From Candidatus Norongarragalinales archaeon (GTDB lineage: Archaea; Micrarchaeota; Micrarchaeia; Norongarragalinales; Norongarragalinaceae): a DNA stretch of 30,673 nucleotides. Positions 17,821-26,966 of this stretch are shown here, piece by piece. Both the position numbers and the translations under genes were made by a program. The stretch lies in contig DATDSY010000078.1 in assembly GCA_035291125.1 (NCBI GenBank), positions 1 to 30,673 of the forward strand, read 5' to 3'. Under the pieces are notes generated by a model. That model saw nothing but the letters and a program-made list of their open reading frames with translations, made no database searches and was not told the origin of the DNA. Positions within the stretch are counted from its first letter, which is position 1. Every line of letters starts with the position of its first letter.

Positions 17821-17851
17821 GTTACTACCCTGCAGTTAATAGTATTTAAAG
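17821..17851 (-). promoter_or_regulatory. TATA box plus shared 17-bp element, copy 1
   Basis: Coding strand: CTTTAAATA-N5-AACTGCAGGGTAGTAAC, 16 nt upstream of the GTG. Identical element and spacing at 26729-26759. Confidence 0.75.
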
Positions 17852-17901
17852 GTTTTCGTCTGGGGGGCTTTGCAGGCAAAACCAGCGAGTAGTCTAAAAG
17901 G

Positions 17902-18162
17902 TGGGGTCACGGAGAATCGAACTCCGATTTGCAGGTTTCTTCAAGAGGAGGAGAAACCAAGGTTTCTCCTATCTACTCCTCTTCCTTTTCACTGGAGGAG
18001 GCAACTTTTCACGTCATCTTCGCTTTCGCGAATTCAGAGCTCCAGTCTCAAAAAGCTCACAGGCCGGCGGCAGTCCGCGGCTGCCGTGCAACCGCATTCT
18101 CCGCCAACCTCACAAAACCAAGTATACTGGAGCCTGCCGTAATGCCACTATACCATGACCCC
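17902..18162 (-). tRNA. tRNA-Trp(CCA) with an intron at 37/38
   Basis: Exon 1 (18162-18127): GGGGTCA TG GTAT AGTGGCA TTAC G GCAGG CT CCA G. Exon 2 (17936-17902): A CCTGC AAAT CGGAG TTCGATT CTCCG TGACCCC A. Acceptor, anticodon and T stems pair fully; the D stem has one T-T mismatch. CCA end is not fully encoded. Confidence 0.93.
17937..18126 (-). ncRNA. 190-nt tRNA-Trp intron containing a probable box C/D guide for C34 2'-O-methylation
   Basis: ACTGGAGC (18046-18039) is complementary to pre-tRNA G31-G37 plus the first intron base and lies 1 nt before CTGA (18037-18034). The N+5 rule points to C34. It is followed by a TTCGC-GAAA-GCGAA hairpin and a C'-like GATGA. Confidence 0.7.
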
Positions 18163-18231
18163 ATCCCAAGGCCAATTTAATACTTGATTCGGTTTAGTTT
18201 TATTAATTGCTTTTCAAGGGGTTTTTTGGGA

Positions 18232-18885
18232 ATGTTGGTGGCTGGCGCTGACGATTGCGGGAGAGGGTGCGTATTCGGCGGGATGTTCATATGCGCGTTT
18301 GCAATCGACGACTCCAAGGAGGGAGAATTGCGCAAGCTCGGCGTGAAAGATTCGAAAATGCTTTCGCCCGAAGCGCGCGAAAAACTCTACCCCAAACTAA
18401 TCAAGATGGGCGACTACGCAGTTGTAGAGTACAGCGCCGAGAAAATCACGATGCTCATGCGCCGCAAGGTTTCACTCAACACCATGGAAGCGGCAATGGT
18501 CGCGGAAGCTTTGTCGCTGTTGCGCGAGAGGCCGAAGAAAGTTTTCGTCGACTCGCCTGACCCCGACCCGCATACTTTCGAACGCCGCATCCGCAAGTTT
18601 TTCGACCACGAAATCGAATTCGTTTGCGAAAACAAGGCCGACGTCAAATATCCAGTCGTTTCCGCCGCGTCCGTAATCGGGAAAGTGCTGAGGGACAACC
18701 AGATTGAGCGCTTGCACAAGGAAATCGGGGATTTCGGAAGCGGCTATACGCACGACCCGCGCACCGTCGCTTTTCTCAAGAAAAACTTTGACCGGCTGGA
18801 AGTGCAGAAGCACTTGCGCCAAGAGTGGAGCACCATCAAAAAGAACCATGCGCCCGCAGGGCAGGCGAAGCTCGGCGATTTCTAG
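18232..18885 (+). CDS. rnhB: Ribonuclease HII
   Basis: GADDCGRGCVFG (variant of GxDEAGRGP), GVKDSKML, VFVDSP, KADVKYPVVSAASVIGKVLRD, DFGSGYTHDP. Confidence 0.9.
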   Translation: MLVAGADDCGRGCVFGGMFICAFAIDDSKEGELRKLGVKDSKMLSPEAREKLYPKLIKMGDYAVVEYSAEKITMLMRRKVSLNTMEAAMVAEALSLLRERPKKVFVDSPDPDPHTFERRIRKFFDHEIEFVCENKADVKYPVVSAASVIGKVLRDNQIERLHKEIGDFGSGYTHDPRTVAFLKKNFDRLEVQKHLRQEWSTIKKNHAPAGQAKLGDF

Positions 18886-18954
18886 AAAAACAAAAAAAAG
18901 AATATTAGAAAAAGAAAAAATAGAAAAGAAAGAAAAAAATGAAAGGGGAAAAAC
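18886..18954 (-). terminator. Long oligo-T tract on the minus strand between convergent genes; probable terminator
   Basis: 69-nt A-rich stretch on the plus strand, read as repeated U runs after the stop of 18955-19644. Confidence 0.45.
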
Positions 18955-19644
18955 TCAAACGAGTTTTTCCAAGTCGTCTTCCTTCTTCTTTGCCACGCGG
19001 GCAACAGAGTCCTTCATTCCCAGGCCGATCGCTATTGCGAGACCCAAGCCGAATGCCAGGGACAGGGAGCCGAGCAACAGCAGGAAGGCCGTGCGCAGCA
19101 AGCTCGCGTCAGCGTTGGGAAGGAACAAAGGCAAGGCGATGACTACTGCAGTGTAGACGATAAACGCCTCGACGACCCAGCCCACGAGATTGCGGAATGG
19201 AATGCTAGAGCGCTTGATCATGTCCGTAAGGTAGTCGCCAGCGAGCAGCGCAATTATGAGGATTGCAACTCCCTGCACGAACATAGGCACGTAGCCCACG
19301 AACCACCGCACTAATTCGCCCAGAAACACCAGGCTGGTTATTTCAGCGGCTATTCCCAAAAACACGGCCAGCGTCAAGAGCTTGAGGACTTTGCTCAAAA
19401 GGTCTGTGAGCGTAAAGCCCATGAGCGCGTCGTGCAAGCCCCTCTTGCGCAATTCTTTCTCCATGCCGATTTGCGCGAGAAAGTGGTGCAAGAGCGAGAT
19501 GAGGAACATTGCCACTATCCAGCCTATGCCCAAAAACACTATTAAAATCAGAACGTCGAGAAGCCCGAACAGGAAATTAGTAAAGGCCGACCCCAACGCC
19601 ATAATAAGCCTGGAATACAACACGTCTAAAACCAAACCAATCAC
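18955..19644 (-). CDS. Polytopic membrane protein with conserved TM-helix repeats (MscS/CmpX-associated TM_helix type)
   Basis: Repeated units ...LILIVFLGIGWIVA... and YVPMFVQGVAILIIALLAG; ends SLAFGLGLAIAIGLGMKD. Confidence 0.65.
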   Translation of the reverse strand: MIGLVLDVLYSRLIMALGSAFTNFLFGLLDVLILIVFLGIGWIVAMFLISLLHHFLAQIGMEKELRKRGLHDALMGFTLTDLLSKVLKLLTLAVFLGIAAEITSLVFLGELVRWFVGYVPMFVQGVAILIIALLAGDYLTDMIKRSSIPFRNLVGWVVEAFIVYTAVVIALPLFLPNADASLLRTAFLLLLGSLSLAFGLGLAIAIGLGMKDSVARVAKKKEDDLEKLV

Positions 19645-25131: not shown

Positions 25132-26721
25132 CTTCGAAGCCGCGCGTTTTATTGCCCTTAGCTTTTCCTTGAAGTTGCCTGGAAACGCAGATTGGCTTTG
25201 CTTGCCCCTAGAAAACAAGACTACGGCCACTAGTGCCGCGATTATCAACAAAGCCAAGAGCAGGCTGTTTTGAGAAACCGAAGTGAACAAACCCGTCAAT
25301 CCGGAAGGCTTTATCGCCTGTAAGGGCTTGCGCGCTATTTCCCTGCCTTCGCTTTTTATTACCAACACCGGCGAAAGCGCTTCCTCCGAAGTGGTTTGCG
25401 TGATCTTTACAAAAAGCGTCGCAGTCTCTCCCGGCCCGATTGAGCTTACGGTCGAAGACTCTACTTTCCACTGGGAAGGAATGCCCTCTATTTCGGCAGT
25501 CACGTTTTTCAAAGCCTCTGAAAAAGCATTCGTGATTGAAACGCTTATGTCCAGGACGTTGTCCGAACGCGTTTCGACAGACTGCACTGGCGCGGTCGCC
25601 GTGCAAGAGTCAACCTGGATTTTCACTTCAGCCTGCCCGAACAATCCTCTCGCCGAGCTTTTTGCGGTAACGAGAAAAGCGTTTTCGCCCGCCTTCAGGG
25701 AATCGGCAGGAATGCTTATCGCAAACAACGCCTTTTCTCCGGCGTTTAGCTGCACGAATTCTGGAGTCGACTGCGAGCTCTTGGGAATTTCTATTGCGAA
25801 AGAGTCGCGCGAAGTTCCGGTGTTTTCCACTATAGCGTTGAAAGAAATTTCCTCGCATTGCTTTCCTGAAACTTTCTGCGGCAGGCGCACCTGCCCCTCA
25901 AAAACGTCATCTACTTCAACGCAAACCGGGTTTTCAGCCAAAACCTGGCCGCTGTGCGACACTTGCAGCGAAACGTACCGCCTTCCGCCTTCAACCCGCT
26001 CGGGAAGAAATTCTATCCAGACTTCCTTCGATTCTCCCCTGCGCAGGGAAACGGCCCTCGGCGAAACGTATGAAGAAATTTCGTTCTCCGCGCCCACGGT
26101 CCTCAACTCGAAAGTCGAAGCAGCCCCGCGGTTGATTACGGTGAAAGGCCTGCGTGCCGTTTCGCCCGGCTTTATCTTAATGCAATAATCGCTTCCTGAA
26201 ATTTCCGCTTCAAAATCGGTAGGGTCGAAACGCGAAGAGTAAGCAACGGTGCTCCACGCGAAAGAGCCGTCCCCGTACGAACGCGGAGGCACGAACGAAT
26301 CCACTGCAACGCGGCTGTCGTCGTAAATGCTGCAGCGTTCCGGCGGGTTGGCCGCAACCAAAACCGACTTCTCGAGCGCTTCGCAACGCCCGTTCGCATC
26401 GCAAACGTCAGCCTTTACGCCAATGCGCTCGGTTCCCCTGAAGCAAAGCGGAGCCCAAAACTTAAGCCACGTCCCCTTCGCCCCCCTTTCGGGAACAATG
26501 ACGCCGTCGTCCTCGAAAAACCCGTTCAGCCCGCCCAAGTCGGCGCTGAAAGACGCGGTTCTTGCTATTCCATCGGTGTTCGTTATCCAAAAGTAAACCT
26601 TCCCTTCCGTACCGCGTATGGAAACGTGGTCGGAATTAGAATACAATTGCAAAGAGCTCGCGCTCGAAACGAAAAGCAAAGCGAAAAACAAGGCAAACGC
26701 TATTCCCTTCAAAAAATTCAC
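25129..26721 (-). CDS. Multi-Ig-like-domain surface protein with signal peptide and C-terminal TM
   Basis: Signal peptide (FVSSASS|L), Ig-like units (INRG...L.RGESKEV; VENTG...LNAGEK; IEGIPSQW...IGPGET), paired Cys, SGLTGLFT, TM, basic tail. Confidence 0.82.
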   Translation of the reverse strand: MNFLKGIAFALFFALLFVSSASSLQLYSNSDHVSIRGTEGKVYFWITNTDGIARTASFSADLGGLNGFFEDDGVIVPERGAKGTWLKFWAPLCFRGTERIGVKADVCDANGRCEALEKSVLVAANPPERCSIYDDSRVAVDSFVPPRSYGDGSFAWSTVAYSSRFDPTDFEAEISGSDYCIKIKPGETARRPFTVINRGAASTFELRTVGAENEISSYVSPRAVSLRRGESKEVWIEFLPERVEGGRRYVSLQVSHSGQVLAENPVCVEVDDVFEGQVRLPQKVSGKQCEEISFNAIVENTGTSRDSFAIEIPKSSQSTPEFVQLNAGEKALFAISIPADSLKAGENAFLVTAKSSARGLFGQAEVKIQVDSCTATAPVQSVETRSDNVLDISVSITNAFSEALKNVTAEIEGIPSQWKVESSTVSSIGPGETATLFVKITQTTSEEALSPVLVIKSEGREIARKPLQAIKPSGLTGLFTSVSQNSLLLALLIIAALVAVVLFSRGKQSQSAFPGNFKEKLRAIKRAASK

Positions 26722-26728
26722 CTCAATC

Positions 26729-26759
26729 GTTACTACCCTGCAGTTGGGACTATTTAAAG
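26729..26759 (-). promoter_or_regulatory. TATA box plus shared 17-bp element, copy 2
   Basis: Plus strand GTTACTACCCTGCAGTT-N5-TATTTAAAG, identical to 17821-17851 apart from the 5-nt spacer. Confidence 0.75.
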
Positions 26760-26787
26760 ATAGCGTTTCGCGGTGAAACCTTCTTTT

Positions 26788-26817
26788 TCACTACCCAATA
26801 GTAAATACATTTATAAA
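26788..26817 (+). promoter_or_regulatory. Palindromic site TCACTA-N5-TAGTAA just upstream of the trmB-like TATA (TTTATAAA, 26810-26817)
   Basis: Shares the ACTACCC core with the two 17-bp elements; forms an imperfect inverted repeat with a 5-nt spacer. Confidence 0.55.
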
Positions 26818-26966
26818 CAAGGATATGCAACATTTGCAGGTAGCGAAGGCAACAGCCAACCGCTGTTGCAAAGTAGCGATGGTGCAAGCCGACGCAGGCA
26901 GGTAACAAGTTACTCCTGGAAACAAGTAAAATAATAAAGGTGTGGTGTGTGAATTACTCCGATGCT

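Follow-up and report, generated by a model that had tools for sequence, protein, structure and literature searches.

The operators published for TrmB-family regulators are TACT-N3-AGTA, TATCAC-N5-GTGATA and TACT-N7-8-GAGTA (PMC4158304), and their effect follows their position: TrmB-family sites that lie downstream of the TATA box and overlap the transcription start site (TSS) repress, and sites upstream of it activate (PMC4158304; PMC10817205). The interval between TATA box and start is also the classical place of archaeal repressor operators (PMC4158304). Here we analyse a stretch of 30,673 nucleotides (contig DATDSY010000078.1 of assembly GCA_035291125.1, from a Candidatus Norongarragalinales archaeon; the whole stretch is called the window below), in which a 17-bp element, AACTGCAGGGTAGTAAC, precedes two transcription units for surface proteins, and a gene for a 248-aa TrmB-family protein, hereafter the regulator, diverges from one of them. 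Most DPANN archaea, the Micrarchaeota among them, have not been cultivated, and their regulators are very few; our literature search found no paper linking TrmB-family regulators to gene regulation in DPANN or Micrarchaeota. On comparison of sequences, the 17-mer is the genus-level version of a putative 19-bp palindromic operator, GTTACT-N7-AGTAAC, of one Micrarchaeota order. Taken as a whole, the observations are probably best explained by an order-wide operator at surface-protein promoters, with a TrmB-like protein as its binder and repression by occlusion as its effect.

An earlier reading of the window (the original prediction) had proposed a TrmB-type, possibly sugar-responsive switch for adhesin expression, starting from one identical element at two promoters about 9 kb apart. 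The two copies are indeed exact. They are minus-strand sequences (17821-17837 and 26729-26745) found 5 nt downstream of TTTAAATA (17843-17850 and 26751-26758, minus strand), and both stand 7-16 nt ahead of a Shine-Dalgarno (SD) sequence of the GGTG type and the start of a gene for a protein with a signal-like N-terminus. The N5 spacers between TTTAAATA and the element, CTATT and GTCCC, differ at four of five positions. When up to 3 mismatches were allowed, the window held two matches against 0.02 expected by chance, and none of 100 shuffles reached two; the ribosomal-protein and other housekeeping promoters of the window were without the element. No further copies with up to 2 mismatches were found in the assembly (898 kb in 131 contigs, 78% complete).

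Reading the sites together showed the 17-mer to be the right-hand 17 bases of the 19-bp inverted repeat GTTACT-N7-AGTAAC, which is also the same motif as the TTACTA-N5-TAGTAA of the original prediction. In this genus the half of the repeat on the start side is near-perfect and the half on the TATA side degenerate; the perfect palindrome is present in some relatives, e.g. GTTACTGCAGCGTAGTAAC. We call class I those sites at which the TATA box is followed after 3-5 nt by the operator, and the operator by the predicted start and the SD. The class-I operator of the giant-protein operon (17821-17839, minus strand; TTAACT-GCAGGGT-AGTAAC) has the genome's top score with the position weight matrix (PWM), 26.7, its TSS-proximal half being perfect and its TATA-proximal half degenerate, and its TATA box (17843-17850) was assigned from the genus alignment together with the geometry. 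The class-I operator of the family-B, or 525-aa, gene (26729-26747, minus strand; CCAACT-GCAGGGT-AGTAAC) scores 23.3, with its TATA box (26751-26758) assigned from the genus alignment. In that alignment, which covers the orthologous promoters of five species, both operators are conserved, and the conserved blocks common to the two promoter families are the TATA box and the 17-mer alone; the family-B promoters have an additional conserved second palindrome with its own TATA box.

The element extends well beyond the genus. Of 41 related genomes, 15 have the 17-mer with up to 2 mismatches, some of them from other families of the order, and nearly all of these matches lie 3-5 nt past a TATA box and just ahead of a signal-peptide gene. 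A composite pattern, TTTAAATA-N3-5-NNNACT-N7-AGTAAC, gave 37 matches in 29 of the 68 genomes of the order, against none for the reversed pattern used as the control; in a phylum sample of 301 genomes it was found in 16 of the 36 that belong to the order and in one of the 265 outside it, again with no control matches. Behind 32 of 33 distinct sites there is an open reading frame (ORF) with a signal-like N-terminus, compared with 22.6% at baseline (P ~5e-20), although this baseline is a crude one, taken from the long ORFs of this genome. The targets begin in several ways, as judged by eye: giants of the 'PPEVC/QGICS...DCVF' type, the 525-aa family with 'D.V.IRGTE.KV', Tyr-rich proteins, 'CTPG' proteins and others. 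The element is a real, strongly conserved and lineage-specific cis-regulatory element with TrmB-type half-sites, at what would be the repressor position of surface-protein promoters.

Could the two copies nevertheless be a recent promoter duplication, or a product of gene conversion, without a function of their own? The original prediction had itself named a simple duplication, with the motif at these two promoters only and homology running into the flanks, together with a regulator that does not bind the motif, as the outcome that would speak against it. Part of that was seen: the genome has just the two exact copies, and sister genomes show homology in the flanks. The stretch common to both promoters is about 45-60 nt long in G001 and G002, and in G003 and G004 the same two substitutions (TACTGCAGAG) appear at both. 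Within each species of the genus the two promoters (17805-17860 vs 26713-26770 in the window; L009/L018, L010/L019, L012/L024) evolve concertedly, which suggests gene conversion over 9-10 kb. In the window's own genome, though, identity between the two promoters outside TATA box and 17-mer is at background level (7/31 upstream, 15/35 downstream), no mobile cassette with conserved ends was seen, and the operator is far older than such a duplication, recurring in other genera and families with the same core and diverged flanks ahead of genes whose N-termini differ. Homogenization does not explain conservation across the order ahead of proteins with different N-termini, the control gave no matches in 301 genomes, and we regard duplication, which the order-wide conservation contradicts, as a very improbable account. 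The groups of unrelated N-termini were judged by eye, with a pairwise test made for the window's two proteins alone; apart from unrelated N-termini, these show no more than a distant Ig-like similarity (180 aa at 21% identity), and a whole-gene duplication of the two target genes was rejected for this reason.

The position of the element relative to the TATA box is equally regular. The TATA box (8 nt), the gap of 3-5 nt and the site of 17-19 nt add up such that 22-23 nt separate the end of the TATA box from the base after the site. Since the archaeal TATA box is centred near -26 (PMC10817205), transcription would be expected to start at that base, and the sequence there is in keeping with this: C at -1 and usually a purine at the predicted +1, just past the site, with the SD often beginning right there. 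In two genomes an ATG lies 2-3 nt past the site, as in leaderless transcripts. At the giant-protein operon, 22 nt lie between TATA box and predicted start, the latter being the first base after the 17-mer, at ~17820. Most probably, then, the element is not transcribed and takes up the interval from TATA box to start. With 22-23 nt from the end of the TATA box to the end of the site, and with +1 as predicted, its geometry would fit that of archaeal repressor operators between TATA box and TSS (MDR1, Phr, TrmBL1 type).

The same geometry bears on whether the element acts instead in the mRNA, as a signal for stability or translation in the 5' untranslated region, a role that its place just upstream of the SD and its constant orientation relative to the gene might suggest. 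By its distance from the TATA box, however, it lies upstream of the predicted +1, some copies are found on the upstream side of TATA boxes, and the half-sites of the window's copies form no stable hairpin: one half-site is degenerate and only three of six positions of the inverted repeat could pair, a pattern that fits protein binding rather than an RNA hairpin. We consider an mRNA element hardly tenable. Neither Rfam nor ARAGORN returned matches for the window or for the site on contig C25 described below, and an RNA family or tRNA was dropped as an explanation of the element. The sequencing runs that contain this sequence are DNA metagenomes, with no RNA run listed.

A less improbable but still distinctly unlikely alternative is that the element belongs to the core promoter, as an extended or initiator-like module for strong constitutive expression of the envelope that needs no dedicated regulator. 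The fixed distance from the TATA box and the fixed orientation, with GTAGTAAC adjoining +1, would suit such a module, as would a class-I spacer (..CTGCAG/CTGTGCAG..) that is conserved across families (the regulator-proximal spacer is not), and the targets may be abundant envelope proteins. The promoter-proximal and initiator elements known in archaea, however, are short and weakly conserved, whereas this one is an inverted repeat in which the centres of the half-sites are 13 bp apart, as expected for a dimeric winged helix-turn-helix (wHTH) protein; the palindrome also occurs upstream of the TATA box at the gene for a Lys-rich protein, where the TATA-to-SD geometry points away from it; and the housekeeping promoters in the window lack it.

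What, then, would bind the operator? All 50 of the regulator's orthologue loci with enough upstream sequence to be counted have, within 300 nt upstream of the start, a site with a PWM score of at least 12 in a fixed orientation with a TATA box 3-4 nt on, the background for this score being 0.012 per 300 nt; 20 of the 50 played no part in building the PWM, having been added later from six other families, and every one carries the site. A divergent family-B homologue stands beside the regulator in 46 of these loci, across ten families. The regulator gene is present in 65 of the 68 genomes of the order and in all 22 of the high-quality ones, as a rule in single copy. The motif includes TACT-N7-AGTA, which matches TrmB-type half-sites, near the TATA box at a fixed distance. 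Order-wide occurrence in single copy with a universal upstream site, the divergent pairing, the match of half-sites and an invariant Tyr-Asp pair in the protein (see below) therefore make the regulator the best candidate, and the motif is most likely bound by this neighbouring 248-aa protein. The proposal that one TrmB-type operator is common to the surface-protein promoters and the regulator region is strongly backed by these comparisons.

Comparison with characterized members of the family shows how close the likeness comes. The regulator TrmBL1/Tgr and its Thermococcales glycolytic motif share with our system a TrmB-family wHTH regulator and an inverted repeat in a 6-N5-6 layout, and TrmBL1/Tgr represses from sites downstream of the TATA box that overlap the TSS, with the opposite effect upstream, a rule that the original prediction had given as it is published. 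The half-site here is TTACTA as opposed to TATCAC, so that layout alone and not the sequence TATCAC-N5-GTGATA is held in common; the regulator lacks a sugar-binding subdomain, its targets are surface proteins as against sugar metabolism, and the lineages are DPANN and Thermococcales. The site TACT-N7-8-GAGTA of Halobacterium salinarum TrmB (VNG1451C) has a core near-identical to TACT-N7-AGTA and the same dual positioning relative to the promoter, but that protein has 360 aa with an effector domain responsive to glucose and glycerol and controls central metabolism, in contrast to a 248-aa protein with a putative surface regulon. Pyrococcus/Thermococcus TrmB at malE likewise uses TACT/AGTA half-sites, in an operator that abuts BRE/TATA much like the regulator-proximal cassette; it differs in its N3 rather than N7 spacer, in being induced by sugar and in serving an ABC transporter operon.

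The regulator itself (26949-27695, plus strand) starts with GTG at 26949 behind the SD AAGGTG (26937-26942), an alternative start being ATG 26967, and diverges from the family-B gene as originally described. Its N-terminal wHTH matches PF01978 at 72.2 bits (cut-off 25.6; E 3.2e-20) over residues 20-85 and is also seen in the AlphaFold2 (AF2) model. The recognition helix reads PRPRIYDVL, in which PRIYDVL aligns with PRTYDVL of TrmBL2, and RPRxYDVL with the Tyr-Asp pair Y56/D57 is invariant in 34 aligned orthologues; the DNA-contacting pair in Pyrococcus furiosus TrmB is Y50/D51 (PMC4158304). The closest solved chains by sequence are those of TrmBL2 (PF0496/TK0471; PDB 5BPD, 5BOX), at E 1e-16 and ~25% identity, and the AF2 model (pLDDT 85.7) aligns with TrmBL2 over its full length (TM 0.64/0.61, E 4e-18). 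With TrmBL2 it shares the length class, the succession of wHTH, long helix and PLD-like C-domain, the absence of a sugar-binding barrel and high conservation within its own lineage. It falls short of the TrmBL2 equivalog NF041141 (66.8 bits, cut-off 530), as it falls far below the cut-offs of all NCBIfam equivalogs.

The effector half of the protein bears on the sugar response that had been suggested. Of the Pfam Regulator_TrmB effector domain, only positions 1-120 of 233 are matched, below the cut-off; against the sugar-binding domain 2F5T the AF2 model aligns over 128 columns only, and its C-domain resembles PLD-like folds. The regulator is thus, as modelled, without the distal sugar-binding subdomain, its architecture being a wHTH, a long helix and a single PLD-like C-domain. 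A sugar-responsive switch was rejected as unsupported on these grounds, i.e. the partial match to Regulator_TrmB, the best match to TrmBL2 and the lack of that subdomain.

The likeness to TrmBL2 also lends itself to a different reading, in which the operator is genuine but is bound by some other transcription factor or by a TFB/TBP-associated one, the TrmB-like protein being a chromatin protein of TrmBL2 type that is joined to the operator by synteny alone. The best match by both structure and sequence is to a protein without a known consensus site, the regulator is universal and single-copy as a housekeeping nucleoid protein would be, and the cassette nearest to it could belong to the 525-aa gene alone. 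Set against this are TACT/AGTA half-sites of the kind known for TrmB-family wHTH proteins, invariant Tyr-Asp contacts and a divergent pairing, in 46 of 50 loci and ten families, that is typical of regulators and their targets; no other regulator gene was found beside the class-I sites examined. Binding by another factor is in our judgement unlikely, yet it is the strongest of the alternatives to binding by the regulator.

Several observations weigh against an operator of this order-wide kind bound by the regulator. TrmBL2, the closest characterized relative, is reported to be an abundant chromatin-like protein for which no consensus site was found (PMC3031468), in contrast to the precise palindromic site proposed here. 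The regulator-proximal cassette is oriented like the class-I cassettes, and it may serve the 525-aa gene and not the regulator, which would weaken the argument from autoregulation. The target genes may encode major envelope proteins, and a repressor would not be the obvious choice for their control. As the regulator is nearly universal, correlating its presence or absence with that of the motif is uninformative. The exact identity of the window's two copies is partly due to promoter homogenization. In the window's own genome the strict GTTACT-N7-AGTAAC shows no enrichment over other spacings or scrambled palindromes, and the regulon is tiny: besides the two promoters in the window and the regulator region, it has a single site on contig C25, with weak candidates on contigs C71 and C12, and the PWM scan is only modestly above column-permuted controls. 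Across the order the strict palindrome, with up to 1 mismatch, is about 2-fold over control (tally 171 vs 85), which is why a clean order-wide signal needed the composite of TATA box and palindrome; within family f10, and most clearly in its genus g24, it shows no enrichment over control, and the family-B promoter is often without a class-I site there, none being recognizable in genus g24 (L087, L091, L106).

We nevertheless favour an operator bound by the regulator, in a scheme that would run as follows. At class-I promoters the operator would occupy the space into which RNA polymerase is recruited; the 248-aa protein would bind it as a dimer through the winged helix; and the surface-protein promoters, which in the window are those of the 1538-aa plus 681-aa unit and of the 525-aa gene, would be repressed by a block to polymerase recruitment, by analogy with TrmBL1/Tgr at sites past the TATA box. 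The further operator next to a TATA box between the two divergent genes could then let the regulator control its own gene, or it could act as another input to the 525-aa gene. Motif, geometry, conservation, gene families and protein fold are what the analysis shows; the identity of the binder, the direction of regulation and the TSS are inferred. That the universally conserved TrmBL2-like protein is the binder is probable; the mechanism is of a known kind, and what is new is the regulon, the lineage and the architecture of the regulator.

A bolder version, which we put forward tentatively as the less probable case, is that a TrmBL2-type protein, of a class so far regarded as non-specific chromatin proteins, acts in this DPANN order as the sequence-specific master switch of the surface proteome, possibly of proteins that contact a host, using a fixed operator-TATA cassette to repress surface genes on one side and to feed back on its own gene on the other. 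Were this so, the operator would also point to a possible recognition code for TrmBL2-like proteins at large. The proposed regulon is a concrete one, with a single universal TrmB-family protein, a 19-bp operator of fixed geometry and targets that are almost wholly secreted and membrane-anchored, and it is open to in vitro tests that need only recombinant protein and synthetic DNA and no culture. It is probably through surface proteins that these cells meet hosts or the environment, and such a regulon would add control of the envelope to the roles of the TrmB family in sugar and central metabolism, with proteins of TrmBL2 architecture possibly being sequence-specific.

The proteins behind the two operators can be described from their domains. 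The family-A gene (13188-17804, minus strand) encodes 1538 aa with a signal-like N-terminus, a Cys-rich sequence, CarboxypepD_reg/Ig-like domains and a C-terminal transmembrane (TM) anchor. The second gene of the giant unit (11153-13198, minus strand), of up to 681 aa with a likely start at ATG 13150 or 13180, encodes an Ig-like domain between a signal-like segment and a C-terminal TM anchor; it is co-directional and begins 7-37 nt past the 1538-aa stop, and the two genes presumably form one operon. The family-B gene (25129 to 26712/26721, minus strand; ~525-527 aa), with a likely start at TTG 26712 and the SD GAGGTG at 26718-26723, encodes a signal-like N-terminus, Ig-like domains of NPCBM_assoc/CARDB type and a C-terminal TM anchor. 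The original prediction had called these products adhesins; what is seen is a signal peptide, Ig-like/CARDB-type domains and a C-terminal membrane anchor, and the adhesin role itself found no support. All three surface proteins begin with a hydrophobic signal-like segment and end in a Gly/aromatic motif, a TM helix and a basic tail (13200-13290, 11160-11260 and 25135-25230), the terminal motifs being SGLSGFF in the 1538-aa, TTTGFF in the 681-aa and SGLTGLF in the family-B protein, and this arrangement could be a shared signal for anchoring or processing.

Among the other genes of the window are ribosomal-protein, TFB and tRNA-modification genes, which mark the organism as an archaeon. The TFB gene lies at 20375-21322, and its last TFIIB repeat match ends at profile position 85 of 92, at the end of the ORF. 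Just upstream of the giant-protein promoter, at 17890-17945 on the minus strand and upstream to ~18130, there is a tRNA-like 3' half with a T-arm (GGAGTTCGATTCTCC) and an acceptor end, at which ARAGORN and Rfam made no call and which is kept in four of the five species of the genus.

The region between the family-B gene and the regulator holds further elements. The palindrome TTCACT-ACCCAAT-AGTAAA (26787-26805, no strand assigned; PWM 17.8-20.3) has a TATA box 4 nt on, and its inner part, the TCACTA-CCCAA-TAGTAA pointed out in the original prediction, is present at 26788-26804, 5 nt before TTTATAAA (26810-26817, no strand assigned), a second TATA box that is a candidate for either the regulator promoter or a second family-B promoter; this is the cassette found upstream of all 50 orthologues. 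In the genus g24 genomes L087, L091 and L106 the regulator-proximal palindrome and TATA box are fully retained. In genera with a single cassette between both genes, one TATA box may serve both directions. The 'degenerate sense copies' reported in the leader (26835-26906, plus strand; ~26835, ~26867 and 26894-26906) do exist in the sequence but are kept only in the closest relative, L028, whose regulator is 89% identical, and are absent from L029-L031, the remaining three species of the genus, which leaves them unsupported as functional elements. Further on, GTTACTC...AAGTAAA (26909-26930, plus strand) includes a half-site, GTTACYC (26909-26915), that many orthologues retain in their leaders, at 20-45 nt from the SD of the regulator. 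An A/T-rich TATA-like box abutting the SD recurs together with this half-site (26909-26942) upstream of the regulator in many families, and the box could be a proximal promoter for a near-leaderless transcript from the internal ATG 26967.

The palindrome lies on the upstream side of a TATA box at two places, in the regulator's intergenic region and on contig C25. The C25 palindrome, GTTACTACTGCCGAGTAAA (L082:1486-1518), is 4 nt from the TATA box and upstream of a gene for a 352-aa Lys/Ala-rich coiled-coil protein (L082:394-1452, minus strand), with a TATA-N22-SD geometry that points away from the palindrome. Of the four sister species, G003 and G004 retain this site, G001 has an eroded version and G002 has lost it; the site is possibly a fourth member of the regulon, of a class in which the operator lies upstream of the TATA box.

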